A DNA stretch of 64,000 nt from Candidatus Krumholzibacteriota bacterium (GTDB lineage: Bacteria > Krumholzibacteriota > Krumholzibacteriia > JAJRXK01). The DNA is taken from assembly GCA_963764625.1 (NCBI GenBank), contig CAVXTH010000006.1, forward strand, positions 640,001 to 704,000, read 5' to 3'. The notes beneath the pieces were generated by a model. That model worked only from the letters and a program-made list of their open reading frames with translations. It did no database searches and was not told the DNA's origin. A program made the translations under genes and the position numbers. This document shows positions 1 to 14,164 of the stretch, one piece after another (the stretch's first letter is position 1; each line of letters begins with the position of its first letter).

Positions 1-283
1 CGCCCCGACTGTTTTCGGGGTGTTTCAGTGGTATTATCGAGGGAGGAATCCAGTCGAATCCTACTGGTGGTCCAAAGTGGATACCTCTCTCGCCGATGTT
101 ACGCGCCGCCTGGATCTCCTGGATCCCGGACGCAAGTTCGCCTGGTACGTTCGCTGCCGCCCCTGGCACGATGACCCCAACGGTTGGCTGCTCGGGGCGT
201 TCGAGGAAAACTGGCGCTACCGCGCCCTGTTTCAATTGCCCGGGGTCGAGGTCTATCTCTTCGAGCGCAGAGGAGCGCACTGA
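1..283 (+). CDS. 3' end of an upstream gene (partial, function unknown; possibly a membrane glycosyltransferase tail)
   Basis: Frame is open from position 2 to TGA at 281-283, which overlaps the next ATG (TGATG); Trp/Tyr-rich C-terminus. Confidence 0.6.
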   Translation, partial: APTVFGVFQWYYRGRNPVESYWWSKVDTSLADVTRRLDLLDPGRKFAWYVRCRPWHDDPNGWLLGAFEENWRYRALFQLPGVEVYLFERRGAH

Positions 284-927
284 TGGTGGCCCGCGCTCTC
301 GGCGCCGAGTTGGCCAAGACGCACTGGTTCTATGAACCGGTCAAACGGCTCTTCGACCTCGTTGCCGCCACCCTGGGCCTGATCTTTTTCCTGCCCCAAG
401 TTCCTTTCCTCGCTCTACTGGTGAAACTGGAATCACCGGGTCCCTTTCTGTTCCGGCAGGAGCGGGTGGGCAAGGGCGGCCGGCATTTCTTCTGCTTCAA
501 GATCCGTTCGATGGTGGTCAACGCCGAGGCGCTCAAGCAGAGTTTGTCGCATCTCAACGAGGCCGACGGGGCCGCATTCAAGATCCGTCAAGATCCGCGC
601 ATCACTCGCGTGGGACAGTTCGTACGGCGTTCGTCGCTCGACGAATTCCCCCAGCTTCTCAATGTCCTGCGCGGGGAGATGTCCATCGTGGGCCCGCGCC
701 CTCAGGTTCCCGAGGAAGTGGCCCAGTACCGCCCGGAGCATCGAGCGCGTCTGGAAGTAAAACCGGGCCTCACCTGTCTCTGGCAGGTCAGCGGACGCAA
801 CGATCTCGATTTTGAGGAGTGGATGCGCATGGACCGCGAATACGTGCGGAGGCGGGGACTGAAACTGGATCTGTGGATCCTCCTGCACACCCTTCCCGCC
901 GTGATCGCGCGCAAGGGCGCGTATTGA
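283..927 (+). CDS. Initiating sugar transferase (polyprenyl-phosphate phosphoglycosyl transferase, Bac_transf family)
   Basis: Motifs KRLFDL, FKIRSM, DPRITRVG, SLDEFPQLLNVLRGEMSIVGPRP, KPGLTCLWQVSGR; AGGAG RBS at 271-275; ATG at 283. Confidence 0.93.
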   Translation: MVARALGAELAKTHWFYEPVKRLFDLVAATLGLIFFLPQVPFLALLVKLESPGPFLFRQERVGKGGRHFFCFKIRSMVVNAEALKQSLSHLNEADGAAFKIRQDPRITRVGQFVRRSSLDEFPQLLNVLRGEMSIVGPRPQVPEEVAQYRPEHRARLEVKPGLTCLWQVSGRNDLDFEEWMRMDREYVRRRGLKLDLWILLHTLPAVIARKGAY

Positions 928-975: not shown

Positions 976-1893
976 ATGAGCGATGCCACTTTCGCTTCCG
1001 GACGTCTCTCGACCTGGCTGCGCTTCACGCGGCCCTTCACCCTTTGGCCCCCGGGCCTGGGAATGATCAGCGGTGGATTGACCGCCATGGGCGCCTATCC
1101 GCGCGAGAGCTTCAGCGGGGACATTCTGGTCAAGCTCGTCCTGGGCGCCGTGATGGCCGCGGTCCTCAACGCGGCCAGCAACGGGATCAATCAGATCTAC
1201 GACCTCAAAGTCGACCGGGTGAACAAGCCGGAGAGAGCGCTGGTGACCGGAGCGATGAGCGTAGGGGAGGCCAAGATCCTCTCGGCCGTTCTGTACCTCG
1301 TGGCAATGATCCTGGCGGCGCTGATCAACATCGAGTGCTTGCTCTTGGCCGCGGTCGCGGCGGTGTTGACCTGGGTGTATTCCGCGCCTCCCTTGCGCAG
1401 CAAGCGACACGGCTGGTGGGCCAACCTGACCATCGCGGTTCCCCGTGGGCTCTTGCTCAAGGTGTGCGGTTGGGCCTCGGTGAAAACCTTCATGGCCTTC
1501 GAACCGTGGTACATAGGGTCTATCTTCTTTCTCTTTCTGCTGGGAGCCTCCAGTACAAAGGATTTCGCGGATATGGAAGGAGATCGCCTGGGCGGGTGCG
1601 AAACGCTTCCTCTTCGCTACGGAGTTCATCGCGCGGCCTGGATGATCGCACCTTCCTTCGTGCTTCCGTTCATCATGCTCCCGCTGGGCACCGAGCTTGG
1701 AATTCTTACCGGCAATCCCCTTCTGCTGAATCTGTTGGGACTGGGTCTGGCGGCCTGGGGCTGTTATACGGTGTATCTTCTAGTACGGCGTCCCGATGAG
1801 CTCGCGACCACCGAGAATCATCCTTCCTGGACCCACATGTACCTCATGATGATGGCGCTGCAGGTGGGCTTCGCCATCTCGTACCTGTTCTGA
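976..1893 (+). CDS. UbiA-family prenyltransferase (homogentisate phytyltransferase/DGGGP-synthase-like subgroup)
   Basis: Asp-rich motifs NQIYDLKVDRVNKPER and KDFADMEGD, plus RFTRPFTL and YSAPPLRSKR; multiple TM helices. Confidence 0.9.
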   Translation: MSDATFASGRLSTWLRFTRPFTLWPPGLGMISGGLTAMGAYPRESFSGDILVKLVLGAVMAAVLNAASNGINQIYDLKVDRVNKPERALVTGAMSVGEAKILSAVLYLVAMILAALINIECLLLAAVAAVLTWVYSAPPLRSKRHGWWANLTIAVPRGLLLKVCGWASVKTFMAFEPWYIGSIFFLFLLGASSTKDFADMEGDRLGGCETLPLRYGVHRAAWMIAPSFVLPFIMLPLGTELGILTGNPLLLNLLGLGLAAWGCYTVYLLVRRPDELATTENHPSWTHMYLMMMALQVGFAISYLF

Positions 1894-1907
1894 ACGAGGG
1901 GAGAGTC

Positions 1908-2291
1908 GTGATCGTCGGCCTGGGAATCGACCTCTGCGAAGTGAGACGCCTGCGCGATCTGGAAGAACGCTATGGCGAGCGATTCCTGCGCCGCATCTTC
2001 ACGGACAAAGAGCGGGACCGCTGCGCGGGACGGCGCCACCACGAATGCCTCGCCGGACGGTTCGCGGCCAAAGAAGCGGCGCTGAAGGCCCTGGGCACCG
2101 GACTCTCGCAGGGCATCGCCTGGCGTGACGTCGAGTTGACGCGGGGGGAATACCAAGCTCCCACCATCCTCTTTCATCGGCGGGCCCGCGAGATCTTCGA
2201 GCGTCTGGGGGGGAAGCGGGTGCAGGTTTCGATCACGCACGACGGAGGCAACGCGGCCGCAGTCGTGATTCTCGAAGGAGAGAGCTCATGA
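1908..2291 (+). CDS. acpS: Holo-[acyl-carrier-protein] synthase (4'-phosphopantetheinyl transferase)
   Basis: Motifs GLGIDL, LAGRFAAKEAALKALGTG, VSITHD; 127 aa; GTG start. Confidence 0.95.
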   Translation: MIVGLGIDLCEVRRLRDLEERYGERFLRRIFTDKERDRCAGRRHHECLAGRFAAKEAALKALGTGLSQGIAWRDVELTRGEYQAPTILFHRRAREIFERLGGKRVQVSITHDGGNAAAVVILEGESS

Positions 2292-2959
2292 ATCGAGACT
2301 CTCTGGCTCTCCTGGTCTCGGGGGCCTGGCTGCTGGTGGTCCTGGTCATCGCCGAGCTCGCGCGGCGGAGAGGCATGGCGCGGGTGGACACGCGGCGCCT
2401 GGTTCACGTGGCCATCGCGAGCTGGATCGTTCCCACCTTCTTGCTCTACGAGAGCTGGCCGTGGGCCGCTGCGCCGGCCTTCGCCTTCGTGATCGTCAAC
2501 GCCCTGAGTCTCCGCTTCGATCTCATCAAGAGCGTGGAAATCCGCGAGCGGAGCCTGGGGACGGTATTCTTTCCCCTCAGCGTGGGCATCCTGACCATCT
2601 TGGGCTGGCACGATCCCTGGCGGCCAGTGGCCGCGGCCGGAGTGTTGAGCATGGGGTGGGGAGACGCTTCGGCCTCGTTCGTGGGCCGCCGTTGGGGTCG
2701 TCGTCTCTACCATGTCGCCGGTCACCAAAGGAGCGTGGAGGGTTCTCTGACCATGCTCGTGATCAGTTGGCTGGCTGTGCTCGTGGCGGGCGCTCTCTTG
2801 GGGAGGGGAGTCGATCCCGGTTGGGCCGAGGCGGGCCTGCTCGCGGCCCTGGTGGCCACCGTGCTCGAAGGAATCTCGTTGTTCGGCGCGGACAATCTTC
2901 TGGTGCCCCTGTCCACCTCCGCCATGCTGGCCCTCATGCACGGGAGGCTGTGGGTGTGA
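2288..2959 (+). CDS. Phytol/farnesol/dolichol kinase-like CTP-dependent membrane kinase (VTE5/FOLK-like)
   Basis: Motifs TRRLVHV, SMGWGDASASFVGRRWG, RSVEGS, DNLLVP; ATGA overlap with acpS. Confidence 0.85.
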   Translation: MNRDSLALLVSGAWLLVVLVIAELARRRGMARVDTRRLVHVAIASWIVPTFLLYESWPWAAAPAFAFVIVNALSLRFDLIKSVEIRERSLGTVFFPLSVGILTILGWHDPWRPVAAAGVLSMGWGDASASFVGRRWGRRLYHVAGHQRSVEGSLTMLVISWLAVLVAGALLGRGVDPGWAEAGLLAALVATVLEGISLFGADNLLVPLSTSAMLALMHGRLWV

Positions 2960-4005
2960 TGGAGACCTCGAATTTCGCTCCGGTGGACCGGGTGTTTCTC
3001 ACCGGGGGCACGGGCTATTTGGGCAAGCACTTGGTGCGCGAGTTTCTCGAAGCCGGCTACGAACTGCTGTTACTCACGCGCGAGAATTCCGATCGCAGCG
3101 GCCTGCCGCTAAAGGGTGTCCGCTACGTGGAAGGTGACTTGCTCGATCCTGCTAGCTACGCGCACGTGCTGGGCGAAGTGGGAGCGGTGGTGCATTCGGC
3201 CGGCCTGGTCAGCCGCTGGGAGAAGGACAAAGACCGTTTCGATCGGGTGAATGTCGAAGGCCTCGACGGATTGCTACGCGCCTGTACCCAGGCCCAGGTG
3301 GCGCGCGTGGTGTACACCTCTTCGTTCTTCGTGCTGGGTCCGGGAGAGGACGCCGCGCCGCGCGACGAGACGCAGCGCATGCCGGTCGCTGGCTTCAACG
3401 ATTACGACCGAACCAAGATTCTGGCGGAAAAATGCGTGGGCGCGCACCGACGCCAAGGACTCGACGTCATCAGTGTGCTGCCCACCGTGATCTACGGTCC
3501 CGGTGCGAGAACCCAGGGGAACCACGTGGCGGAGATTCTGGAAGATCTGCTTGCGGGAAAGCTCCCGGGCGTGATCGGAAGTGGTGCGCAGGTCTGGAAC
3601 TACGTCTTCGTGCGCGACGCCGCGCGCGGACATCGGCTGGCTCTGGAGAAGGGGGAAGCCTGCGGCGACTATCTTCTGGGAGGAGAGAACGCGAGCATGC
3701 TGGAGTTTCTGGACCTCGCAGCCGAGATCGGTGAAGTCTCTGCCCCCAAGAGAAAGGTCCCCTTCAGGGTTCTGATGGCGGTGGCGCGTCTGCAGATGTT
3801 GAGAGCTCGTCTCACCGGCAAGGCTCCCGAACTCACCAGTGGCATGGTGCGAAGTTATCAGTACGATTGGGCGTTCAATGACGCGAAGGCGCGCCGCGAG
3901 CTGGGCTACGAGGGTAGAGACCTCCACGATGGTCTCAGTGAGACCATCGGATGGTTGCGCGCGGGCGGAGTCTCTCCGTTTCGCGAACGGTGGGAATTCC
4001 AGTGA
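2959..4005 (+). CDS. NAD(P)-dependent extended SDR, HpnA/farnesol dehydrogenase (FLDH)-like
   Basis: Rossmann motif TGGTGYLG, YTSSFFVLG, catalytic YxxxK (YDRTK), YLLGGENAS, KARRELGY; ATG at 2959 overlaps the upstream TGA. Confidence 0.85.
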   Translation: METSNFAPVDRVFLTGGTGYLGKHLVREFLEAGYELLLLTRENSDRSGLPLKGVRYVEGDLLDPASYAHVLGEVGAVVHSAGLVSRWEKDKDRFDRVNVEGLDGLLRACTQAQVARVVYTSSFFVLGPGEDAAPRDETQRMPVAGFNDYDRTKILAEKCVGAHRRQGLDVISVLPTVIYGPGARTQGNHVAEILEDLLAGKLPGVIGSGAQVWNYVFVRDAARGHRLALEKGEACGDYLLGGENASMLEFLDLAAEIGEVSAPKRKVPFRVLMAVARLQMLRARLTGKAPELTSGMVRSYQYDWAFNDAKARRELGYEGRDLHDGLSETIGWLRAGGVSPFRERWEFQ

Positions 4006-4748
4006 ATGCCCTCCCCGCCTTCAGCTATGGCTTCGATTGGCACGCGCTCGCTCTCCCTCTGCTGGGGAACCTGCTGCTGGCGGTCGTGGCCTGGCGCCGA
4101 TCGCTGGTCAGCCGCAGTGGCTTTTGGGGCGGAGCGCTGTTGGGAAGCTGGATCCTGATCCTGGGCGGCGGGGGAGCCTACCTGCTCCTGTGCGCATTCT
4201 TTGTCCTGGGGACCTCCGCGACTCGGCTGGGCTATCGGCGGAAGGCGGAGCGAGGACTGGCCCAGGAGGAGCAGGGACGCCGGGGGGCCCGTCACGTGCT
4301 CGCGAATTGCGGCGTCGGGTTGCTTCTGGTCACGCTCTATCCCCGTCATTTCTCGTTCGCCCTCGGCGCGGCGTATGTTGCCTCCTTCGCCACCGCGACC
4401 GCGGACACCCTGGGCAGCGAGGTCGGTCAGTTGTGGGGCCGGCGGACCTTCGACCTCTTGCGCTTCCGCCCAGTCCCGCGCGGCAGCGAGGGCGGAGTCT
4501 CGCTGGAGGGAACCCTCGCGGGGGCGCTGGGGGCCGTGATTCTGGCGCTGCTGGGCTCCTTTCTGCGATTCTATCCACTTTCGCTGTGCTGGATTCCCGC
4601 CCTGGCCGGGGTTCTCGGAAGCGCCCTGGAGAGCCTCCTGGGGAGTTCAGCGAGGCTGCGCGCGGGACTGGACAACGAGCTGCTGAACTTTCTGAACACG
4701 GTGTTTGGCGCCATTCTGGCCTGGACCGCGCTCCAGATGCTGTATTGA
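4002..4748 (+). CDS. DUF92/TMEM19 membrane protein (VTE6 phytyl-phosphate kinase-like)
   Basis: Motifs GRRGARHVLAN, ATATADTLGSEVG, VPRGSEGGVSLEGT, ESLLGS, NELLNFLNT; GTGA overlap at 4002-4005. Confidence 0.9.
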   Translation: MNALPAFSYGFDWHALALPLLGNLLLAVVAWRRSLVSRSGFWGGALLGSWILILGGGGAYLLLCAFFVLGTSATRLGYRRKAERGLAQEEQGRRGARHVLANCGVGLLLVTLYPRHFSFALGAAYVASFATATADTLGSEVGQLWGRRTFDLLRFRPVPRGSEGGVSLEGTLAGALGAVILALLGSFLRFYPLSLCWIPALAGVLGSALESLLGSSARLRAGLDNELLNFLNTVFGAILAWTALQMLY

Positions 4749-4799: not shown

Positions 4800-5145
4800 T
4801 GAACTTCGATCAAAGAGGGATCCGCGGCCGGTCCTACGCCAGACCCGCGTCGACTTCCGATCTCTCACATAGGAACGCAACTTTGCTTCCGCACCAAAGG
4901 AGTGCCCGTAGAGCTTGGTTAACGCGGTTCCCTCGTCGTGGGGAACGTTGACATCCGGGGGGGACGTAGCTAGCTACCGAAGGCAGGAATCCGTGAGGAG
5001 AATCTGCGCGGTCTGGTAGAACCCTTGGTGAGAGCTCCAGGTGCACGGTCTCAACGATCGTAAACCCGCTGTCATCTCGCTGAACTTTTGCCTCTTCAAG
5101 GCGAACCCTCGTGCCATGGTTGGGGCGGGGGAGGAGTGTAGTGTC

Positions 5146-5961
5146 ATGTCCCTCGAGGTTTACTCCGCGAAACGCTCGCTTCTCAGGCTCTGGCCGGTAC
5201 TCTTGCTATTCGGTTTGGGCGCCTGCGGTTCGAGTGCCTACACCGACGTCGATCTCCAGAAGGATCTCGACGTTCCCAGTGCGAGTCATCTGAGTCCGGA
5301 GGCTCAGACCTTCGCGGCCGCGCCGGATACCATGCAAGTGCCGCCGGTCTACCGCATCGGCAGCGGCGATGTGCTCGAAGTGGTCTTCTTCACCCATCCG
5401 GACCAGAACCGCTTCGTGACGGTACGGCCGGACGGGCGGATCACGCTGCCCTACGTGGGCGATTTGATGGCGCGGGGGAAGGAGCCCACGAAGCTTGCGA
5501 GCGAGATCCAGAACGACTACTCGAGAGTGCTGGTCGATCCCAAAGTCGATATCCTGGTGAACAAGATCGGCGGGAAGTACTACGTGCTGGGGGAAGTGAA
5601 GAACGCGAACGAGTTCAGTTACGAGCGGCCTCTCACTCTTCTACAGGCTATTGCCGGTGCTGGTGGGTACAGTAACGACGCACGGCTCTCCAATTTCGTT
5701 CTGATTCGGGTCGACGGGAAAGGCGGACGTTTCGCTGCTGTCTTCAACATGCGCGAGTACATGAGCCAACGAAAAAAACGAGGGGACATCTACATCCAGC
5801 CGGATGACATCGTCTGGGTGCCCAAGGACAACATCAGCCGCTGGGACAATGCAGCCCGAAAGTTGTTTGGCACCGTCGTGCACGCAGAGGATATGGTCTA
5901 CAAGGGGCTGCAGATAGTCAAATTCGACGAGGTCTACCCGGGCAGATATTACGCTCCTTGA
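5146..5961 (+). CDS. wza: Polysaccharide export outer-membrane lipoprotein (Wza/Poly_export + SLBB)
   Basis: Lipobox LGAC; motifs YRIGSGDVLEV, VRPDGRITLPYVG, YVLGEV, IQPDDIVWVP; GAGGAG RBS at 5131-5136. Confidence 0.9.
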   Translation: MSLEVYSAKRSLLRLWPVLLLFGLGACGSSAYTDVDLQKDLDVPSASHLSPEAQTFAAAPDTMQVPPVYRIGSGDVLEVVFFTHPDQNRFVTVRPDGRITLPYVGDLMARGKEPTKLASEIQNDYSRVLVDPKVDILVNKIGGKYYVLGEVKNANEFSYERPLTLLQAIAGAGGYSNDARLSNFVLIRVDGKGGRFAAVFNMREYMSQRKKRGDIYIQPDDIVWVPKDNISRWDNAARKLFGTVVHAEDMVYKGLQIVKFDEVYPGRYYAP

Positions 5962-5991
5962 GATCGCAACGCCGATTGGGAGAAGGAAGCC

Positions 5992-7437
5992 ATGTCAGGA
6001 CTCTACAGCCAAGGACCGGTACAGGGGGAGCGCGATACCACGATGCGCGACCTTCTGTCGGTCGTGTTCAAGCGCAAGTGGCTCATCATCATCTTTTTCC
6101 TGGGAACCTCGGTCCTGGTGGCCCTGAAGGTGGTCACCACTCCGGAGACCTGGTCGGCCGACGCCACCCTCATGTTACAGCGGCAGGGACGAACTAGTGT
6201 GATGGAGAACAGTTCCAGGGCCTTGCCTTGGGTGGAGGTGATGGAGTCGGAGGTCGAAATCGCCCGCAGTGTCCCGGTGCTGCAATTGGCGCGCGCCAAA
6301 CTCAAGGAACCCACGAAGGACTTTCCCGAGGGTATCGATCTGAGCATGGGCGCTCTGGGCGCACAAATCAAATCGGGAGGCGTCGGAGAGTCAAACGTGG
6401 TGTACATCACAAGCATCGGCGATCAGCCCAAGAGAGCCATCCGCATAGCCAACAAGGTTGCTGAAGCCTATGTCGAATACCATAAGAAGATGTTCGCGCT
6501 TCCCGATGCGGCAAGCGCAGTCAAGGCGCAGACGGATTCGACTCTCAAGGCTCTATCGGACTTGCAGAATGAGCGGCAGCGAATCTTGAATGAGGCGGGG
6601 TTCACCGATCTCAAAGCCGAAGAGACGAATCTCCACTCGTTGCGGCGCGAACAGCGCAGCAACCTCAGTCAGGCGGAACTGGAGATAAGTACTCTTCGTG
6701 AACAGGTAGCGGCCATACCAAAGGATGTTAATGGAATTGGCAGCGATCTTCCTTTCAATATACCGAGAGGATACGCGCAGCAGGAACTCATGATGAATGC
6801 GGTAGAAAGATACCGTAGGAGTCAACATGATCTTGAGGAACTGAAATCTCAGTATACGGAAGAGCATCCCAAGGTCAAATCCGCGGAACTCGAACTCCAA
6901 GAGCGTCGCAAGGCTCTGGAGAGTTCTATCCAGCAATTAGTTTCGCTCAAGACTGAGGAACTCAAGATCGCGGAGGCCAAGCGCGATGGAATTATGCACC
7001 AGATTCAGAAGATCGACGCGCAGCTGGCCAGGATGCCCGATTTTAATCGCAAGGTGAGCTTCCTCGATACCCAAATCGACAGCGCCGAGAAGCAGTACGC
7101 CAAGCTGAACTCGAAGTACGTGGACACCCAGCTGAGCCAGGTGAGCTACCAGGACTACGGCGTTTCGCTGCTCTCTCCGGCGGTGTCCGCCTACAAGAAC
7201 ACCCGCGGCGATCTGGTCCGCATGGCCCTGGCGCCCCTCCTGAGTCTGTTGGCCGGCATCGGTCTGGCCTTCTATCTGGAAAATCTGGATCACTCGATGA
7301 AGACGCGCGAGGACGTGGAGCATCATCTCGAGATTCCCGTCCTGGCCAGTTTCCCCGACGTGGACGAGGGGGAATCGGATCTCGAGCCCCGGACGAGGCG
7401 AACCCCCTTCTGGAAAGGCCGCCGGGGCGGCCGCTGA
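5992..7437 (+). CDS. Polysaccharide co-polymerase/chain-length determinant (Wzc N-terminal/GumC-like)
   Basis: Two TM segments flank a coiled coil; motifs YTEEHPKV and ENLDHSMKTREDVEHHLEIPVLAS. Confidence 0.9.
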   Translation: MSGLYSQGPVQGERDTTMRDLLSVVFKRKWLIIIFFLGTSVLVALKVVTTPETWSADATLMLQRQGRTSVMENSSRALPWVEVMESEVEIARSVPVLQLARAKLKEPTKDFPEGIDLSMGALGAQIKSGGVGESNVVYITSIGDQPKRAIRIANKVAEAYVEYHKKMFALPDAASAVKAQTDSTLKALSDLQNERQRILNEAGFTDLKAEETNLHSLRREQRSNLSQAELEISTLREQVAAIPKDVNGIGSDLPFNIPRGYAQQELMMNAVERYRRSQHDLEELKSQYTEEHPKVKSAELELQERRKALESSIQQLVSLKTEELKIAEAKRDGIMHQIQKIDAQLARMPDFNRKVSFLDTQIDSAEKQYAKLNSKYVDTQLSQVSYQDYGVSLLSPAVSAYKNTRGDLVRMALAPLLSLLAGIGLAFYLENLDHSMKTREDVEHHLEIPVLASFPDVDEGESDLEPRTRRTPFWKGRRGGR

Positions 7438-7487
7438 ACCGAGCACGCGATTTGGCCGGGGAAGTACCGGCCCGGGAACGGTAGACG

Positions 7488-9008
7488 ATGTATCGGCACC
7501 ATTTCGGCCTGCGGGAGAAGCCCTTTCAGATCGCTCCCAGTCCGAGGTTCCTTTTTCCCTCCGAGACGCACGACGAAAGTCGCGCGCGCATTCTCTATGG
7601 GATCGAGGACAACCGCGGGTTCGTCGTGGTCTACGGCAGGGTCGGCCTGGGAAAGACCACGGTGTTGCTCTCGGTGCTCGAGGAACTCGACGCCAAGACC
7701 CGAACTGCACTTCTCTATCAGCCCATTTCCAGCTTTCACGATCTGCTGCGCATGACTGCTCATGAGTTCGGTCTGGGCAGCGAGAACCGGGATGAGGTGA
7801 ATCTCATCTGGGATCTGAACGAGTTTTTCATCCAGAGGCTGTCCGAGAGTGAGAAATGCGTGCTCATCGTCGACGAGGCGCAGAATCTCAGCCTCGAGAT
7901 CCTGGAGAAGCTTCGGACGCTCAGCAATCTGCAAACCGAGAGCGCCTCGCTCCTGCAAATCGTTCTGGTGGGTCAACCCGAGCTGTACGACAAGCTCTCC
8001 GATCCCCGGTTATTGCAGCTGCGGCAGCGGGTGGGCGTGTGGCACGAAATCGAGTCCCTCAATCGCGAGGAAACCACGGACTATATCTTGCATCGCCTGC
8101 AGCGGGCCGGTGCGCGCCGCCCCAAGGAAATCTTCTCGGTGAGAGTGTGCGAGCGCGTTCATGAGTTGACCGGAGGCGTCCCCAGAGTCATCAACCAGGT
8201 ATGCGATACAGCGCTGATGATCGCTTACGGCAAGGAATCGCCGCAAGTCGAGGTGGAGGATGTGGTGGAGGCGGCCCACGAGTTACACCTGGTGGAGGAA
8301 GAGCCCAAGCCTCGCGAGACGCAGCTAGCGAAGGAACGTCCCACTGAGGAACTCAAGAAGAGTCCGGTGTGGGCTCGACTCAGCTTCGCCGCGGTCATCT
8401 TGCTCGTCGTTCTGGGAGCGATTTGGATATTCTTCGGGGGAAATTTGCGGCTCGCGCTCCGGGGCGACCGCATGGCTACCGGGAGCGGCATCGTGGACGC
8501 GGTGGCCGCTTCACCCGCGACCGATTCCACCGCCGCGGCGCAGAATCTCCCCGCGGTCCAGAAGGAGGAGATGCGGGTTCCGAAGGAGTCGGGCAAGGAG
8601 ACTCCGGCCACGAGTCCCGGCGACGAAATCTCTCCGGAGAGAATGGAGCGCATGAAGGCCCACCTGGAGAACGTTCGCAGTTTGCGCGCGGCCGGGAAAC
8701 CCGTCTATACGGTGCATTTGAATTCGTTCAAAGAGGTGGCGCGCGCGCAGGAATTCGCTAGTGATATCGCGAGGGAACAAAACTGGGAGCAGCCGGTATT
8801 CATGGAGCGGAGCGGGCGTAATCCGGTCTGGTACCGGGTGTTCGCCGGAGAGTTCGGGCGGAGCCGCGATGCCCTGGCCTGGATCGAACAACTCAAAGTT
8901 GAACGAAGAGTGGTCTACGCCAATCTCCAGCAGCTGAGCCGTGATGTCGAGGTGCTCGTGCCGACCGAACCGGATTCGCGCGTGTCCCTGAATGGAGTGG
9001 ACGGATGA
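7488..9008 (+). CDS. ExeA/GspA-family AAA ATPase with TM helix and C-terminal SPOR domain
   Basis: N-terminal MYRHHFGLREKPF; Walker A GRVGLGKT; Walker B LIVDEAQ; LVGQPEL; GGVPRVIN; C-terminal YTVHLNSF...WYRVFAGEF. Confidence 0.88.
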   Translation: MYRHHFGLREKPFQIAPSPRFLFPSETHDESRARILYGIEDNRGFVVVYGRVGLGKTTVLLSVLEELDAKTRTALLYQPISSFHDLLRMTAHEFGLGSENRDEVNLIWDLNEFFIQRLSESEKCVLIVDEAQNLSLEILEKLRTLSNLQTESASLLQIVLVGQPELYDKLSDPRLLQLRQRVGVWHEIESLNREETTDYILHRLQRAGARRPKEIFSVRVCERVHELTGGVPRVINQVCDTALMIAYGKESPQVEVEDVVEAAHELHLVEEEPKPRETQLAKERPTEELKKSPVWARLSFAAVILLVVLGAIWIFFGGNLRLALRGDRMATGSGIVDAVAASPATDSTAAAQNLPAVQKEEMRVPKESGKETPATSPGDEISPERMERMKAHLENVRSLRAAGKPVYTVHLNSFKEVARAQEFASDIAREQNWEQPVFMERSGRNPVWYRVFAGEFGRSRDALAWIEQLKVERRVVYANLQQLSRDVEVLVPTEPDSRVSLNGVDG

Positions 9009-9835
9009 GCAGCATTCGTGATGCCCTCAAGCGTGCCGAGCGGGAACGACTGCGGCGGCAGGAAGAGGCGAAAACATTGAGTGAAGCGCGTACCTCGCAG
9101 GAGGAGTCCGGGGCCTTGTCCACCGAGGCGGATGGCCAGCGCAGCGCTACCGACCCGCGCCGCGAGCTCAAGGTGGTCGACAGTCAGCGGATCTTCACGG
9201 TCGAAGTGCCGATGGGTTTCACGGAAGAATTGGCGCTGTTCCGTCAGGGAGTGGAAGCGGCGGTCCCCAAGCCCAGGCGTTCGTTTATCCTCAGCGGCGC
9301 CACCGCCGGCGAAGGAGTCACCACGCTGACCACCTTCCTGGGGACGAGTCTCGCGGTGCGCGACGGCAAGAAGACGGTAATCATCGACGCCAGTTTCAAG
9401 TCACCGCGATTCTCGCGCATCTTCGGCCTTCTCGGTCGTCCGGGCCTCTCCGACTACTGCAGCGGTTCAGCCGAGTTGGCGGAGGTCCTCGCCAAGACCG
9501 ATTGCGATCAACTCTTCCTCATGGGAGTGGGAACCGAGCTCTATAACCCTTCCCTCATTCTCAGTTCCGATCGTGCTCGCAGCCTCGCTTCAGAGCTCAC
9601 GCAACGCTTCGACTACGTGCTGTTCGACACCGGCGCCGTGCTGAACCACGCCGAGACCTCCATGCTCTCCTCCAGCGTCGACGGAGTGGTGTTGATCGTC
9701 CGCTCGGGCAAAACGAAACGCGAGGTTCTCCTCAAGGCGGAAAAACTCATTCGCTTCAGCGGTGGCCGGGTGATCGGCTCGGTCCTGAACCGTCGTCAGT
9801 ATCCCATACCCGATTCGATCTACAAGCGACTCTAG
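9005..9835 (+). CDS. CpsD/CapB-like tyrosine kinase domain protein with degenerate Walker motifs
   Basis: Motifs GEGVTT, IIDAS, PGLSDY, FDYVLFDT, DGVVLIVRSGKT, GSVLNRR; ATGA overlap. Confidence 0.85.
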   Translation: MSSIRDALKRAERERLRRQEEAKTLSEARTSQEESGALSTEADGQRSATDPRRELKVVDSQRIFTVEVPMGFTEELALFRQGVEAAVPKPRRSFILSGATAGEGVTTLTTFLGTSLAVRDGKKTVIIDASFKSPRFSRIFGLLGRPGLSDYCSGSAELAEVLAKTDCDQLFLMGVGTELYNPSLILSSDRARSLASELTQRFDYVLFDTGAVLNHAETSMLSSSVDGVVLIVRSGKTKREVLLKAEKLIRFSGGRVIGSVLNRRQYPIPDSIYKRL

Positions 9836-9851
9836 GCCGGCGAAAGAAGCG

Positions 9852-11063
9852 ATGTCCCTCGCCCTCGACGCCCCACTGCTGCCATCCGGTTGTCACGCCC
9901 AAGAGCATCGCGTCAGAGAATTCCTCGAGCGCCTGGTCGAGCAAGCCCACAAGGCGCTAGGTACACGACTGCGGGCCGTGGTGTTGGGGGGAAGTCTGGC
10001 ACGGGGAGAGGGAGTGGTCCTTTCCCGCGGCGGCGAGGGCAGATTGCTCTCCGACATCGATCTCTATTTGGTGGTGAACGATCCGGGGACGGAAGAGTGC
10101 CAGGCCCTAAAGGGCGCACTTCGAGCGCAGATGAGCGACTCGTTCTTCGCGGCGCCGTTAGACCTGGGGCTCGTGGACGAATCCTGGTTCGTTAGCCTGC
10201 GATCCACCATTCCCGCGCATCAACTGGCCCACGCAAACCGGGTGATCTACGCGCAATCTCGCGGGTTCGAAGTGAAGATTCCCGCCACCCAGAGCGCGGG
10301 CTTCCCTTGCATCGATCGAGACGATGCACTTCGCCTCTTGATGAACCGCTACGCGGAGCAGATTCTCCTGGACGCGAGGGATCCCGAGTCAGACTTCGCG
10401 CGGTACCACCGTTGGAAGCTCCTGCTGGACGCGCCCTTGGCATGGCTGGCCATGCAGGGCCGGTACCATCCGAAGCGCGAACGGCAGCGAGACCTTCTGG
10501 GTGAGCTGGCGGGCCGGGGTGAAGCGGAGTTCGAGGAGTGGCTGGGAGCCGGCATGGCACGCCTGGAGCAGATTCAGAGGGCGATCGAAGGAGGGCCCAT
10601 TCCAGAGGCGGCGTTCCTAGAATTTCAGGGCAGTGAACTCGCGTGGTCCTGGCCCTTCTTTCGAGCCGGGCTGAGAGTCGCGGCCAAAGAAGACCCAAGC
10701 AGGGGAGAGGAGTTCTTGCGCGAGGCAGTGGCTCTGGGGGCGCCGCGCGAGGAAGACCTGGAGCTCGGGATCCGGTGGCTGAAGCGACGCCCGGTTCTCT
10801 CCCGTTTGCGTGAAGCGAGACGATGGTCGCACGAGAGGCCGTCGGGCGGAAGCTCGTGGATGTCTCACGCCCGGGGAGGAGCAGGAAGGGACAGAGTTCA
10901 ACTCGCGTGCTCGCTCTTCTTCGCGGGCCTTTCCGATTGGGTGGAGGCGTTGCGCAATCTGGTGAAGGAGGACGAACTGACACGCAGAAGCCGGAGTACC
11001 GACTGTGGAGTGTGGCTCGGTGAGCTGTGGTCCGAGTGGGTGATGGGAGGGAGTCGCACGTGA
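9852..11063 (+). CDS. Pol-beta-superfamily nucleotidyltransferase-like protein
   Basis: LGGSLARGEG...LSDIDLYLV (GS plus DxD signature) followed by a helical region. Confidence 0.65.
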   Translation: MSLALDAPLLPSGCHAQEHRVREFLERLVEQAHKALGTRLRAVVLGGSLARGEGVVLSRGGEGRLLSDIDLYLVVNDPGTEECQALKGALRAQMSDSFFAAPLDLGLVDESWFVSLRSTIPAHQLAHANRVIYAQSRGFEVKIPATQSAGFPCIDRDDALRLLMNRYAEQILLDARDPESDFARYHRWKLLLDAPLAWLAMQGRYHPKRERQRDLLGELAGRGEAEFEEWLGAGMARLEQIQRAIEGGPIPEAAFLEFQGSELAWSWPFFRAGLRVAAKEDPSRGEEFLREAVALGAPREEDLELGIRWLKRRPVLSRLREARRWSHERPSGGSSWMSHARGGAGRDRVQLACSLFFAGLSDWVEALRNLVKEDELTRRSRSTDCGVWLGELWSEWVMGGSRT

Positions 11064-12214
11064 AACGCCGTAAGATCGCACTCATGGTCATGGTCGACGC
11101 GCTGGGGGGACGCTTCCTACGGGGACACAATTTTCTGCCCGAGATGCAATACCGCGCCTCGTTGCGAACCGTCCTGGGCTTTTCCTGCGCCTGTCAACCC
11201 ACTCTTCTCAGCGGCAAGCTGCCGGCGGAAAACGGGCACGGCGCCATGTACATCAGACGGGCTGAGGAGTCGGTTCTCGACGCGGCCCGGCCCTTCGACA
11301 GGCTTCCTACCTTCCTGGCGGAAAATCACCGGGTGCGGGCGAAGATCTACGGGCGAGTGGCCTCGCGCATCAACGGCTACTTCAGTCTCTACGACGTTCC
11401 CACGCGCCTGCTCCCGCATTTCGATCTCTCCGAGCAACGGCGGATTTTTTGGCCGGGTGGACTCAATCGCGCGATGAGCATCTTCGACCGGCTCGTCGAA
11501 TTGGGATTGGAGTTTCGCAGCTACGATTGGAGTACGCCGGAACTGGAGAATCTACAGGCCTGCGAACGGGATATCCGTAGCCAGCGGGTCGATTACATCT
11601 TCCTCTATCTTCCCGGTCTCGATGGACTCCTTCACGCCCACGGCCCCGGCGGCTCCGAAGTCCTGAAGCATCTCTCCTGGTACGAGTCGCGGCTCCGACG
11701 GCTTCTGCATCTGGCCGACGAATACGCCGATCACTGCGAGTTCTTCCTGTTCAGTGACCATGGGATGAGTCCCGTTCACGGAGGCATCGATCTCATCTCC
11801 AAGATCGAGCCCTCGATGGGACGCAACGGCAAGCGCTATCTGGCCTTCTACGACTCGACCATGGCGCGCTTCTGGTACGAGGACGAACGAGTGGGCAGCG
11901 AGTTGGTCTCGCTGCTCTCGCAAGTAGAAGGCGGACGCCTGATCCCAGAAGACGAACGCGCCGAACTCGGAGTACGATTCTCCGACCGAAGCCAGGGCGA
12001 CCTTCTCTTCGTGGTGCAAGAGGGCCTTTTGATTTTGCCCAGCTACATGGGAAAGCAAATGCTGGCGGGCATGCACGGCTACCATCCGGACGCACAGCAT
12101 GCCGACGCTTGCCTCCTGGGCTCTTACGCGCCGGATCTCGGCGTGAGTCACATCCGCGATCTTTACCGGCTCATGGATTCCATCGCGGTCAGCGTGAAGG
12201 ACTCGAAAGAATGA
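11060..12214 (+). CDS. Alkaline phosphatase superfamily (nucleotide pyrophosphatase/phosphodiesterase-like) protein
   Basis: Metal-ligand motifs VDALG, DGLLH, SDHGM, GMHGY; GTGA overlap; no signal peptide. Confidence 0.85.
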   Translation: MKRRKIALMVMVDALGGRFLRGHNFLPEMQYRASLRTVLGFSCACQPTLLSGKLPAENGHGAMYIRRAEESVLDAARPFDRLPTFLAENHRVRAKIYGRVASRINGYFSLYDVPTRLLPHFDLSEQRRIFWPGGLNRAMSIFDRLVELGLEFRSYDWSTPELENLQACERDIRSQRVDYIFLYLPGLDGLLHAHGPGGSEVLKHLSWYESRLRRLLHLADEYADHCEFFLFSDHGMSPVHGGIDLISKIEPSMGRNGKRYLAFYDSTMARFWYEDERVGSELVSLLSQVEGGRLIPEDERAELGVRFSDRSQGDLLFVVQEGLLILPSYMGKQMLAGMHGYHPDAQHADACLLGSYAPDLGVSHIRDLYRLMDSIAVSVKDSKE

Positions 12215-13761
12215 GCCGGGATCTCGCGCGCTATGCCCGCTCCGGGGCCTGGTCCACCCTGGCCTATGCGATTCAGGTGGTGGGGGCCCTGGCGGTGAGC
12301 ATCGTGGTGGTGCGCGCGTTGGGGGAGACGCAGTGGGGCGTACTGAGCGAGATTCGGCAGCTGGTTCAGCTTTGCACCATCCTGGGCGGTATGGCGCTCG
12401 AGCGCAGCATCCTGCGCTTTCTCCCCCAACTGATCAGCGAGAAGAACGAGAGCGGCGCGCGGTCTCTGTTCTGGAAGACCATGGCGGTGCGGACCTTGCT
12501 CTGGCTTCCCCTGTTTGCTCTGGCGCTTCTCTTCGGGGGGCAGCTCGACCATTTCTTCCACATTCCGGTCTACGAGCTGGTGCTGATCGGCGTCGCCAGT
12601 TCCTTGGTGTTCTCCGTCTCCAATCACGTTCGTGCCGGAGCTTCCGCGCGCTTTCAAACCCGTAGCGTGGCGGTGGGAACCGCGGTGGGGAGTTTAGCCA
12701 CGCTGGGGGCCACCGTCTGGGCACTGTGGAGCGGCAAGGGAGTGGCCGGCGTACTCATTGCCGCGGCGATCGGCATCGCAATCGCAACTGCCGTGCAGTT
12801 GCCGGCCGCGCTCGGCCCGGGGGCAAGCCGCAAAGCAGGGTCGACGGGATCGAGCGGTTTCTCGTTGCGCGACCGGAAGTTCATGTCCTATGCCTTCCCT
12901 TTCGCGGGGATCGCGGTCTTGAACTACGTAGTCCATTCGGCGACCGAGGTCTTTTTCCTGGGTCATTTCCACGGTCCCGCGCTCGCTGGTTTCTATGTCT
13001 TGGGTTTCAGTTTCGCCCAAAGGCTCATCGACTTCCTGCCTCTGGCGCTCTGGGAGGTTTCCATGGCGGGCTTCGCTGAAGTCGCGGTGCGCGACGCGGA
13101 GCGTCTCCCCGCCGCCCTTCTGAGCTACGTAAAGCTGCTCTATATCGTCCTTCTTCCTCTGGCCTGTGTGGGAGTGGCGTTCTCTCCCGCGCTGATTCGC
13201 GTGTTCTACGGAGAGGCGATGGTGCGCTCGGCCGTGGTGAGCCAGGGCTACTTCGCCATCGCGAGTGTCGCCGCGATGGGAGCTCCCATCGGAATGGTCG
13301 TGTACGCCCGCGATCGCACCGCTTCGGCTTTGAAAGCATACACCGTCTTCGCGGTGGCAAACGTCGGGCTCGACCTGGCCTTGATTCCCGCTCTCGGTCT
13401 GTGGGGCGCCATTCTGGGATTGGGACTCGCGAAGATTCTCTCGGTCCTTTTGATGTCGCGGATCGCCTGGCAGGAGAGTCCTCGACTTCAGATTCCCTGG
13501 ACCTTTCTCATCAAAGCACTGGTGGCCAGTGCTCCCGTCTTTCTGTGGTGGCTGGTGCCGTCCTCGCAGCATGCGGTGCTTCCGGTCCTACTCGGCTTGG
13601 TGGGATCGTTTCTCCTGTTGGTTCTCTCATTCAGGCTGGTGGGGGTCATTGGGAATGCAGAGGCTGCTCTCATTCGTGGCACCCAACTGCCGCTGCGTGA
13701 CGTTCTGTTGCGTTTACTCGGAGCTCCGGCCGAAGCGGTAGAGCCGCCGGCCGCGGCCTAG
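12211..13761 (+). CDS. wzx: Wzx-type oligosaccharide flippase (1)
   Basis: About 12-14 TM helices; MOP-family pattern VVVRALGETQWG, AGFYVLG, LIPALGLWGA; ATGA overlap. Confidence 0.85.
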   Translation: MSRDLARYARSGAWSTLAYAIQVVGALAVSIVVVRALGETQWGVLSEIRQLVQLCTILGGMALERSILRFLPQLISEKNESGARSLFWKTMAVRTLLWLPLFALALLFGGQLDHFFHIPVYELVLIGVASSLVFSVSNHVRAGASARFQTRSVAVGTAVGSLATLGATVWALWSGKGVAGVLIAAAIGIAIATAVQLPAALGPGASRKAGSTGSSGFSLRDRKFMSYAFPFAGIAVLNYVVHSATEVFFLGHFHGPALAGFYVLGFSFAQRLIDFLPLALWEVSMAGFAEVAVRDAERLPAALLSYVKLLYIVLLPLACVGVAFSPALIRVFYGEAMVRSAVVSQGYFAIASVAAMGAPIGMVVYARDRTASALKAYTVFAVANVGLDLALIPALGLWGAILGLGLAKILSVLLMSRIAWQESPRLQIPWTFLIKALVASAPVFLWWLVPSSQHAVLPVLLGLVGSFLLLVLSFRLVGVIGNAEAALIRGTQLPLRDVLLRLLGAPAEAVEPPAAA

Positions 13762-13773
13762 GAGGTTGATTCC

Positions 13774-14145
13774 ATGAGGAATGTCGTGGTCCTGCTAGCG
13801 TGCTTAGGGCTCATGGTGACCGCCCAGGTCTTCTGGAAGACCGCACTGGGAAGAGTGGGAGTGGTGGACGTCATGTCCAGCAGCCTTCCCGGAAGGGTGT
13901 TGTTGTTGGCAAAGTCGTGGCGGATCGTGGTGGGTTTGGTCATGTTCGGCCTGGCGACCCTCTTGTGGTTCGATCTGCTCAGCCGCATGGAACTCTCACT
14001 CCTGTATCCCTTCATGAGTCTGAGTTACGTCATCGCGTTCTTTGCCGGCTGGATGTTTCTCGGCGAGCATCCTCAGCCGCTACGGCTGGTGGGAATCGTC
14101 GTCATCATGGTGGGCATCGCTCTCGTCGCGCGGAGTAGTCCTTGA
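13774..14145 (+). CDS. SMR/EamA small transporter, ArnE/ArnF-like lipid-linked sugar flippase subunit
   Basis: 123 aa, 4 TM; motif LSRMELSLLYPFMSLSYV...FLGE; AGGAGG RBS. Confidence 0.8.
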   Translation: MRNVVVLLACLGLMVTAQVFWKTALGRVGVVDVMSSSLPGRVLLLAKSWRIVVGLVMFGLATLLWFDLLSRMELSLLYPFMSLSYVIAFFAGWMFLGEHPQPLRLVGIVVIMVGIALVARSSP

Positions 14146-14164
14146 GGTGAGTCTGGAAGCTCTC

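Follow-up and report, generated by a model that had tools for sequence, protein, structure and literature searches.

Plants and cyanobacteria salvage phytol with two characterized kinases that act in series, the phytol kinase VTE5 and then the phytyl-phosphate kinase VTE6, the latter a member of the DUF92 family (PMC9782597, PMC13415981, PMC3223725). In plants, the dehydrogenase FLDH reduces farnesal to farnesol (PMC13415981). According to a 2022 review, almost no genes have been assigned to the phosphorylation of free isoprenoid alcohols in two steps outside plants and cyanobacteria (PMC9782597). The literature found under COG1836, which corresponds to DUF92, consists of the plant VTE6 prediction and an archaeal gene fusion only; in Methanosarcina, this two-domain protein, of the same kind as the fusions described below, has been predicted to perform a kinase step in isoprenoid metabolism (PMC5898192). 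Here, we describe a gene cluster at positions 976-4748 of a 64,000-nt stretch of DNA (C6:640001-704000, hereafter the window) from a Krumholzibacteriota genome (3.57 Mb in 9 contigs, 96% complete), in which a VTE5-like and a VTE6-like protein are encoded together with a prenyltransferase of the UbiA superfamily. The genes for these three proteins form a real module that recurs across several bacterial phyla, and a radical S-adenosylmethionine (SAM) enzyme encoded elsewhere in the genome is likely linked to it.

The cluster comprises five of the six genes that are tightly packed on the plus strand between positions 184 and 4748, as established from the list of open reading frames (ORFs) and from the junction sequences (Table 1). 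In order, the five encode the UbiA prenyltransferase, the holo-ACP synthase AcpS, a phytol/dolichol-kinase-like membrane protein (hereafter the kinase-like protein), a short-chain dehydrogenase/reductase (SDR) of the extended type, and the DUF92 protein. A spacer of 14 nt, which includes the stretch GAGGGGAG, separates UbiA from AcpS. The AcpS and kinase-like genes overlap by ATGA (2288-2291), the TGA stop of the kinase-like gene (2957-2959) lies within the GTGATG (2956-2961) that forms the junction with the SDR gene, and the SDR stop (4003-4005) overlaps the GTG start of DUF92 in GTGA (4002-4005). A gap of 292 nt follows before the next gene at 5041, and a scan of the locus for promoters and terminators gave no signal exceeding that of shuffled sequences. 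An earlier reading of the DNA letters (the sequence-only reading) had described five codirectional genes whose last four overlap at stop and start codons, and the ORFs, junctions, and Pfam/NCBIfam assignments confirm this description. The motifs it quoted are likewise all found in the translations, namely YTSSFFVLG, GKLPGVIGSG, and GENAS in the SDR and RFTRP, NQIYDLKVDRVNKP, YSAPPLR, and KDFADMEGD in UbiA.

Relatives of the UbiA protein were confirmed in 182 stretches from one-genome-per-species contigs, of which the best 80 were fetched as loci; these carry the labels Krumholzibacteriota, Eisenbacteria, Acidobacteriota (several classes), Wallbacteria, Cloacimonadota, and Planctomycetota. When the window proteins were compared with the 80 loci by tblastn, the full nine-gene arrangement, flanks included, was found repeated in five loci labeled Krumholzibacteriota/-ia or unlabeled (L001-L004 and L006), and a sixth (L008) has the same arrangement minus the SDR. 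The closest public loci carry the label Candidatus Krumholzibacteriota. Dozens of acidobacterial loci combine the SDR, a fusion of the kinase-like and DUF92 domains, and UbiA, and DUF92 adjoins UbiA within the fetched locus in 50 of the 80. The gene arrangement at 976-4748 is more than chance.

The kinase-like protein seems to be missing outside Krumholzibacteria-type loci because it is fused to DUF92 there. The reading frame stays open for 150 codons or more upstream of DUF92 in 39 non-Krumholzibacteria loci. Of these, 38 encode a same-frame homolog of the kinase-like domain that ends where DUF92 begins, and a profile built from the seven unfused kinase-like sequences alone already detected the domain in 35 of the 39. 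Adjacency to UbiA is not universal. One Eisenbacteria genome has its kinase-like, SDR, and DUF92 genes clustered together ~0.8 Mb away from UbiA, and the fusion gene is solitary in one Wallbacteria genome and in the cultured carrier Sulfidibacter corallicola M133, where UbiA is found at L058, the fusion at L089, and the radical-SAM gene at L098.

The genes also co-occur at the level of whole genomes. Taking matches at E 1e-50 or better as UbiA orthologs, 54 of 151 Acidobacteriota genomes carry UbiA and 53 of these also carry DUF92, with DUF92 alone in 17 and neither gene in 80; without two unpublished genomes that are UbiA- and DUF92-positive and radical-SAM-negative (G028 and G151), UbiA is present in 52 of 149 and DUF92 in 51 of the 52. 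Among 151 Planctomycetota genomes, 34 hold both genes, 5 only UbiA, 6 only DUF92, and 106 neither. UbiA-bearing genomes reached individually from the locus hits have DUF92 in all ten cases. Within the phylum of the window (121 genomes), UbiA is limited to one family, where it occurs in our genome and in six of the seven others, and it is found in none of the 113 genomes of eight other families. Six of the seven UbiA carriers have DUF92 above its cut-off, the UbiA gene of the seventh lies at a contig end, and one additional genome has DUF92 and is not a UbiA carrier. Hence, the genes do co-occur in other genomes, contrary to the outcome that had been named as refuting the sequence-only reading, and the proposed coupling of a VTE5-like and VTE6-like pair to UbiA is supported by synteny, gene fusion, and co-occurrence.

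The DUF92 protein is a clear member of its family (Table 1) that falls below the cut-off of the narrower TIGR00297 model (159.4 versus 205.85 bits). By analogy with VTE6, we propose that it is a prenyl-phosphate kinase performing the second phosphorylation. Its partner, the kinase-like protein, is the candidate CTP-dependent prenol kinase for the first. One source gives close and distant relatives of this protein the names "phytol kinase" or "dolichol kinase," and in the Atlas the protein lies nearest to clusters named "diacylglycerol/polyprenol kinase family" (0.97; most frequent in Cyanobacteriota) and to one named "phytol kinase family" (0.95). Residues R36, N71, G125, D126, G133, E194, D202, and N203 are invariant in the family. 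No NCBIfam model matches the protein, and its family profile finds no match among PDB sequences at E ≤ 10. The predicted model is confident (pLDDT 94.3); a Foldseek search with it returned nothing at E ≤ 0.001, and its superposition on CdsA (Z 7.7 over 168 residues) is within the background of unrelated helical bundles. The two membrane proteins are distantly homologous to each other (hhalign probability 61%, E 7.9e-5), in agreement with PMC5898192, and both touch the CTP_transf_1 family PF01148 (E 2e-3 and 3e-3).

The UbiA protein has both Asp-rich motifs of its superfamily (NxxxDxxxD and DxxxD), with N72, D76, D80, D196, D199, and D203 invariant in an alignment of 19 sequences. The clade is strongly conserved (mean column identity 62%) and carries a C-terminal motif of its own, ENHPSWTHMYLMM, whose ENHPSW.HMY pattern is invariant, as is Cys208; residues past 275 do not align to digeranylgeranylglyceryl phosphate synthase (DGGGPS). 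The best NCBIfam models are PRK12884 (121 bits), ChlG (115), BchG (99.5), DGGGPS (98), and HPT (97), and no equivalog reaches its cut-off. The protein cannot be assigned to HPT/VTE2 (NF009525, 97.1 bits versus 226), to chlorophyll or bacteriochlorophyll synthase (NF005742, 115.1 versus 313; TIGR02056, 71.5 versus 436.45; TIGR01476, 99.5 versus 212.3), or to DGGGPS (NF009521, 97.8 versus 296; NF009522, 80.1 versus 353). The HPT-like identity suggested earlier is thus not borne out, as ChlG and DGGGPS score higher and all lie far under their cut-offs. The closest PDB sequences are Methanocaldococcus jannaschii DGGGPS (6m31, 82.6 bits) and the chlorophyll a synthase ChlG (9sau, 64.9 bits). By sequence, UbiA is an orphan clade near DGGGPS, ChlG, and HPT, a branch whose known members take C20 prenyl diphosphates; these nearest relatives, the sole basis for an estimate, suggest a donor chain that is probably short, C15-C20. 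Because the other three UbiA paralogs of the genome resemble MqnP, heme O synthase, and decaprenyl-phosphate phosphoribosyltransferase (DPPR synthase; Table 1), the UbiA of the cluster has a separate job.

Two further genes were seen directly downstream of UbiA in other lineages. A membrane protein of ~251 aa is encoded directly 3' of UbiA in eight loci (L007, L009, L010, L011 at 7950-8705, L012, L035, L050, and L056), of which four are labeled Eisenbacteria; in L007 it is positioned between UbiA and the radical-SAM gene. Neither Pfam nor NCBIfam places it in a family, and the genome of the window yielded no homolog. In one Acidobacteria locus (L034:7965-9242), a type-I phosphodiesterase/nucleotide pyrophosphatase gene (PF01663, 186 bits) overlaps the end of UbiA directly 3', and its product might trim a phosphate-bearing product.

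The gene set of the sequence-only reading was incomplete, as it lacked a partner encoded on another contig. The genome contains a variant radical-SAM gene (Table 1) that is 57-59% identical to ~400-aa radical-SAM genes found next to UbiA elsewhere. Such genes are adjacent or near-adjacent to UbiA in 5 of the 80 loci, three from Wallbacteria (L031, L032, and L041), one from Cloacimonadota (L033), and one from a genome drawn in the Planctomycetota sample (L007). In the Planctomycetota genomes G286, G323, and G421, the gene lies ~0.8 to 2.5 kb from UbiA, giving eight genomes in total with the radical-SAM gene beside UbiA or within ~2.5 kb of it. Across 22 loci centered on the radical-SAM gene, only two partners recur, UbiA in 5 loci and an M28 peptidase in 4.

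The distribution of the radical-SAM gene follows that of UbiA. In the 151 Acidobacteriota genomes, both genes occur in 43, UbiA only in 11, the radical-SAM gene only in 2, and neither in 95 (without the two unpublished genomes, UbiA occurs with the radical-SAM gene in 43 and without it in 9). The corresponding numbers are 34, 5, 3, and 109 for the 151 Planctomycetota genomes, where the three radical-SAM-only genomes are all DUF92-positive, and 7, 0, 0, and 114 for the 121 genomes of our own phylum. There, the identical seven genomes hold UbiA and the radical-SAM gene, and a genome of the same genus (G207, 93% complete) has neither. UbiA-bearing genomes reached individually from locus hits contain a radical-SAM ortholog in all ten cases (42-65% identity). 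As a control, the DPPR-synthase-like paralog was counted against UbiA in Planctomycetota (both 15, UbiA only 24, paralog only 31, neither 81). The 15 joint occurrences compare with 11.9 expected by chance, which indicates some association, but a much weaker one, with an odds ratio of ~1.6 for the paralog versus ~250 for the radical-SAM gene. Because the pattern repeats in three phyla, both genes are absent together within a genus, the control behaves differently, and adjacency cases exist, a functional link between the radical-SAM enzyme and UbiA is likely, though not proven.

The radical-SAM enzyme has the motif C131-x10-C142-x2-C145 (Cx10CxxC), invariant in 17 sequences, and three more invariant cysteines, C18, C238, and C317, from which we infer a possible auxiliary cluster. 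It clears the NF045502 ("variant_rSAM") cut-off and is not an MSMEG_0568 equivalog (86 bits versus a cut-off of 303.7); a literature search on the names of the MSMEG_0568-type family (COG2516 and TIGR04043) found no relevant paper. Its predicted model (pLDDT 90.1) gives generic fold matches only (LipA, PFL-AE, HydG, MqnE, and BioB at TM ~0.4), the PDB sequence search returned HydG only (E 0.047), and its Atlas neighbors are unnamed radical-SAM clusters only. A predicted complex of UbiA with the radical-SAM enzyme scored 0.00 against a mark of 0.32, which we counted neither for nor against an association.

The remaining two genes of the cluster are less constant. The extended SDR is catalytically intact, with its GxxGxxG motif and catalytic Ser and YxxxK in place and G16, G19, G22, R41, S121/S122, Y149, and K153 invariant among 24 sequences. 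The invariant Arg41 after the second strand hints at NADP(H) use, so the enzyme is probably NADP(H)-linked. Its family scores place it, as far as sequence comparison goes, in a lipid-acting group of HpnA, 3beta-hydroxysteroid dehydrogenase (3beta-HSD), and OleD-like enzymes: HpnA (TIGR03466) scores 212.4 bits, SdmB 136, and OleD 109, versus 61 for the sugar epimerase GalE, and it matches PDB entry 3wj7 with 143.6 bits. A grouping with sugar epimerases, which would have spoken against the sequence-only reading, is therefore not seen. The SDR is not HpnA proper (cut-off 367.65 bits). SDRs of at least 36% identity adjoin UbiA in 42 of the 80 loci, and five UbiA-bearing genomes without an adjacent SDR contain no clear ortholog (matches of 30-35% identity in three, none at E 1e-25 in two). 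Hence, the SDR, previously cast as a part of the route, is an accessory rather than a constant member. AcpS adjoins UbiA in only 6 of the 80 loci, all Krumholzibacteria-type. As it is also the sole AcpS match in the genome, we regard it as a housekeeping passenger specific to this lineage and not, as first suggested by its place in the cluster, a part of the system.

The setting of the module is rich in cell envelope genes. In Acidobacteriota, the usual order is LptD, a sugar-nucleotide SDR, the module SDR, the kinase-like-DUF92 fusion, UbiA, and then heat-shock genes, and LptD adjoins the module in 36 of the 80 loci. Upstream of the window (C6:630001-640000), we find an MsbA-like ABC transporter, three GT9 heptosyltransferases, a GT2-DUF3108 protein, a DAO-type FAD oxidoreductase, an aldo/keto reductase, and a GT-C glycosyltransferase (PMT_2/STT3-like; PMT_2, 35 bits), whose gene extends into the window (2-283). 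This stretch is a lipopolysaccharide (LPS)-core-type region and parallels the LptD neighborhood of the module in Acidobacteriota. Downstream, positions 5041-18078 hold an XrtA/PEP-CTERM-type exopolysaccharide locus (Table 1), within which several large ORFs have no Pfam family. With envelope genes both upstream and downstream, the module is therefore placed in an LPS/envelope region.

The gene immediately upstream of UbiA, a small sugar-phosphate transferase (Bac_transf), scores 281 bits with TIGR03025, under the cut-off of 295.55; translation probably begins further downstream than the listed TTG. Bac_transf precedes UbiA only in L001-L006 and L008 among the 80 loci. The genome contains a second such pair (C6:306294-307764), in which a Bac_transf that is 42% identical to the first lies directly upstream of the DPPR-synthase-like UbiA; this suggests, by sequence, that this bacterium has a lipid-linked pentose route resembling that of decaprenylphosphoryl arabinose. 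As to habitat, the host is an uncultured bacterium from salt marsh; the three DNA sequencing runs with at least half of the sampled words of the locus are salt-marsh metagenomes, and no RNA run holding these words was found in the run listing.

Table 1. Features of the locus, its surroundings, and the genome (positions refer to the window unless preceded by a contig name)
Feature	Position	Strand	Length and start	Family evidence or setting
Small polyprenyl-phosphate sugar-phosphate transferase (Bac_transf, PglC/WbaP C-terminal type)	184-927	+		PF02397 215.7 bits
UbiA-superfamily prenyltransferase	976-1893	+	305 aa	PF01040 137.6 bits (gathering cut-off 34.2)
Holo-ACP synthase AcpS	1908-2291	+	127 aa, GTG 1908	TIGR00516 99.4 bits (cut-off 59.8); Pfam ACPS 68.4 bits
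Phytol/dolichol-kinase-like polytopic membrane protein	2288-2959	+	223 aa, ATG 2288	PF01148 18.5 bits (below cut-off)
Extended SDR	2956-4005	+	348-349 aa, GTG 2956 or ATG 2959	PF01370 137.2 bits
DUF92/COG1836 (VTE6-family) membrane protein	4002-4748	+	248 aa from GTG 4002; alternative in-frame ATG 3951	PF01940 170.2 bits (gathering cut-off 27.5)
Wza-like exporter	5041-5961			XrtA/PEP-CTERM-type locus
Chain-length determinant	5992-7437			XrtA/PEP-CTERM-type locus
PEP-CTERM-system ATPase with SPOR domain	7488-9008			XrtA/PEP-CTERM-type locus
Type-I phosphodiesterase-like gene	11027-12214			XrtA/PEP-CTERM-type locus
Wzy_C/O-antigen-ligase-like gene	16615-18078			XrtA/PEP-CTERM-type locus
FPPS/GGPPS-type short-chain prenyl diphosphate synthase	C6:705406-706353 (L086)			1.4 kb past window end
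FPPS/GGPPS-type short-chain prenyl diphosphate synthase	C6:724607-725785 (L085)			20.6 kb past window end
UbiA paralog, MqnP-like	own genome			339 bits, below cut-off
UbiA paralog, heme O synthase-like	own genome			204 bits (cut-off 210)
UbiA paralog, DPPR synthase-like	C6:306877-307764 (L083)			NF008977 272 bits (cut-off 234)
Variant radical-SAM gene	C9:544832-546100 (L088:7832-9103)			NF045502 195 bits (cut-off 125)

Taken together, these observations lead us to lean, by a little, toward a scheme of two kinase steps, a UbiA transfer, a radical-SAM enzyme, and an optional SDR. The kinase-like enzyme would add a first phosphate to a free isoprenoid alcohol, and the DUF92 enzyme a second, yielding an allylic prenyl diphosphate from which the orphan UbiA would transfer the prenyl group to an acceptor. 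The radical-SAM enzyme would probably make this acceptor or modify the prenylated product. The SDR, as an optional helper, would most likely carry out the reduction of a lipid aldehyde or ketone, whether to provide the alcohol or to alter the acceptor or product, and AcpS would have no part in the pathway. The product is probably a membrane lipid or a cofactor; because the module lies among LPS/envelope genes in two phyla, an envelope lipid is most likely. That the genes encode a "complete route" and scavenge environmental phytol, as was first envisaged, can be inferred at most.

More tentatively, and with less than even confidence, we suggest one undescribed pathway that would unite the kinase pair, the orphan UbiA, and the variant radical-SAM enzyme, often aided by the SDR, and lead to a new class of prenylated envelope lipid or cofactor that carries a modification by radical chemistry. 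The prenol would then be regenerated or modified instead of scavenged: free prenol might be cycled back, or the alcohol might be a modified one that is unobtainable from the de novo diphosphate pool. Either case would explain why the kinases are obligatory despite the presence of synthases for farnesyl and geranylgeranyl diphosphate (FPP and GGPP). The spread of the module is patchy, covering Acidobacteriota, Planctomycetota, one Krumholzibacteriota family, Eisenbacteria, Wallbacteria, and Cloacimonadota, which are mostly uncultured, non-phototrophic phyla.

Several points weigh against the scheme. The kinase-like protein stays below the PF01148 cut-off (E 0.002; cut-off 24 bits), and only 5 of its 33 relatives match this family at E ≤ 0.01. 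CdsA and CarS, to which its model was compared, are cytidylyltransferases and not kinases, and the protein may perform a CDP-forming reaction. DUF92 function is characterized solely in VTE6 of plants and cyanobacteria (PMC9782597). The genome also has genes for two FPPS/GGPPS-type synthases, located near each other and both scoring slightly under the cut-off of the FPP-synthase subfamily, and probably makes short prenyl diphosphates de novo; pure salvage is therefore less obvious, and the need for a free-alcohol route is left unexplained. At the thresholds used, 11 of 54 UbiA-positive Acidobacteriota and 5 of 39 UbiA-positive Planctomycetota genomes have no radical-SAM ortholog, and apart from the eight near-adjacent genomes, the neighborhood of the radical-SAM gene varies. 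The genome counts given above are not independent, as kinship within a phylum inflates them, and taxonomy was available for one of the three samples. Finally, the LptD/LPS context could be inherited synteny devoid of functional meaning.

The best surviving alternative, which we nevertheless consider unlikely, is an archaeal-style ether-lipid branch. Here, a DGGGPS-like UbiA would alkylate an acceptor built on glycerol phosphate (glycerol phosphate itself, a lyso-lipid, or a prenyl-glycerol phosphate), and the two CTP_transf_1-superfamily proteins would be CarS/CdsA-like cytidylyltransferases that activate the product. This would be consistent with the archaeal DGGGPS being the nearest solved structure to UbiA by sequence, with the contact of both membrane proteins with PF01148, and with the superposition of the C-terminal half of the kinase-like model on CarS (5guf; Z 7.2 over 102 residues, 20% identity), the last of which is no better than the helical background. 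DGGGPS homologs in FCB-group bacteria are treated in PMC7852524 and PMC6431249, and the phosphodiesterase gene that follows UbiA in L034 would fit a phosphate-bearing product. However, the 96%-complete genome has no match to PcrB/GGGPS (PF01884) or to the Fe-ADH_2/G1PDH family (PF13685) and therefore lacks the ether-lipid route in its canonical archaeal form. PcrB is also missing from four of five other carriers, and the fifth has a 52-residue fragment at 27.7 bits, just over the cut-off, so that none of the five is convincing. UbiA falls far short of both DGGGPS equivalogs, the characterized DUF92 member is a kinase, and in the Cloacimonadota locus it is a radical-SAM gene and not a GGGPS gene that adjoins UbiA.

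A glycan-carrier route appears less probable still. In this case, the kinase-like enzyme would recharge a polyprenol carrier, like a dolichol or undecaprenol kinase, for the adjacent PglC-like and GT-C glycosyltransferases, and UbiA would resemble DPPR synthase in building a lipid-linked sugar donor. Bac_transf lies directly upstream of UbiA and is itself preceded by the GT-C gene, exopolysaccharide export genes follow downstream, a PMT_2 gene is found near UbiA in one Wallbacteria locus (L031), and some relatives of the kinase-like protein bear the name "dolichol kinase." Yet these Bac_transf, GT-C, and exopolysaccharide neighbors are kept only in Krumholzibacteria-type loci, the 32 families listed for UbiA do not include the DPPR-synthase models among their 25 best, and a separate paralog exceeds the cut-off for that function (Table 1). 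Moreover, a carrier cycle requires the monophosphate only, which leaves the near-obligatory DUF92 partner unexplained. Least credible of all is the earlier proposal of an HPT-like aromatic prenyltransferase that turns scavenged phytol into a product of the tocochromanol or prenylquinone type: plant and cyanobacterial VTE5 and VTE6 do feed HPT (PMC9782597) and UbiA does match NF009525, but with a score far under the cut-off and lower than the ChlG/DGGGPS-type scores, in a genome that has no tocopherol cyclase match (a weak test, as the control genomes also all fall below the cut-off), that has no above-cut-off geranylgeranyl-reductase match and so could not synthesize phytol itself, and whose menaquinone prenylation is plausibly handled by the separate MqnP-like paralog.

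Returning to the scheme of two kinases, UbiA, and a radical-SAM enzyme, its new elements are the tie between a radical-SAM enzyme and a UbiA module and the occurrence of VTE5/VTE6-type activation with a transferase clade, partners, and a host range that are all new. Our literature search found no paper that joins DUF92 with UbiA, where the supplementary trees of PMC5898192, PMC6431249, and PMC7852524 may hold members of the clade, and none that joins Krumholzibacteriota with isoprenoid. The two kinase families occur here as an operon or a fusion with a dedicated, highly conserved prenyltransferase that is present in 54 of 151 Acidobacteriota and 39 of 151 Planctomycetota genomes. If the scheme is true, it would define a widespread bacterial lipid or cofactor not yet named by lipidomics, and compact bacterial prenol-kinase genes would become available for biochemistry and engineering. 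It would also give a first functional handle on the orphan radical-SAM family NF045502, and the cultured carrier Sulfidibacter corallicola M133 renders the question directly testable.

Among described systems, the salvage route of plants and cyanobacteria, in which VTE5/FOLK and VTE6 feed HPT, ChlG, and MenA, combines what are probably the same two membrane families in series with a UbiA-family transferase. The likeness lies in the clear DUF92 membership (170 bits) and in the naming of the kinase-like relatives as phytol or dolichol kinases. In contrast to the separate plant genes, the genes here are operonic, or fused in other phyla; phototrophy is not known from the host, and neither geranylgeranyl reductase nor tocopherol cyclase was found in its genome. 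The transferase misses the HPT, ChlG, and DGGGPS cut-offs, and two additional partners are present, the lipid-type SDR and the radical-SAM enzyme.

The individual proteins likewise resemble known enzymes in part. UbiA has both Asp-rich motifs in common with DGGGPS (6m31) and ChlG (9sau), whose use of C20 prenyl diphosphates underlies our guess of a short-chain donor. It differs from them in its scores below the equivalog cut-offs, in the lack of a detectable GGGPS partner, and in its own ENHPSW.HMY motif and Cys208. The SDR, an extended SDR with intact GxxGxxG and Ser-Tyr-Lys, has its best family scores with lipid-acting SDRs of the HpnA and sterol 3beta-HSD/decarboxylase type; a putative resemblance of its motifs to Arabidopsis FLDH (At4g33360) was proposed in the sequence-only reading. 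It misses the HpnA cut-off and does not accompany the module everywhere. The radical-SAM partner falls, with its Cx10CxxC motif, into the NF045502/MSMEG_0568-type group, a family without an assigned reaction.

The closest match in domain architecture comes from archaea. There, COG0170-COG1836 fusions (arCOG02245, with an N-terminal Sec59-like domain, e.g., Mbar_A3310) are described in PMC5898192, and the domain pair and its order match the fusions seen in 38 of the 39 bacterial loci. In the locus of the window, the two domains are encoded by separate genes that flank the SDR gene. Moreover, the conserved neighbor of the archaeal fusions is reported to be uppS, whereas in the bacterial hosts described here the conserved partners of the pair are the orphan UbiA, the SDR, and the radical-SAM enzyme.

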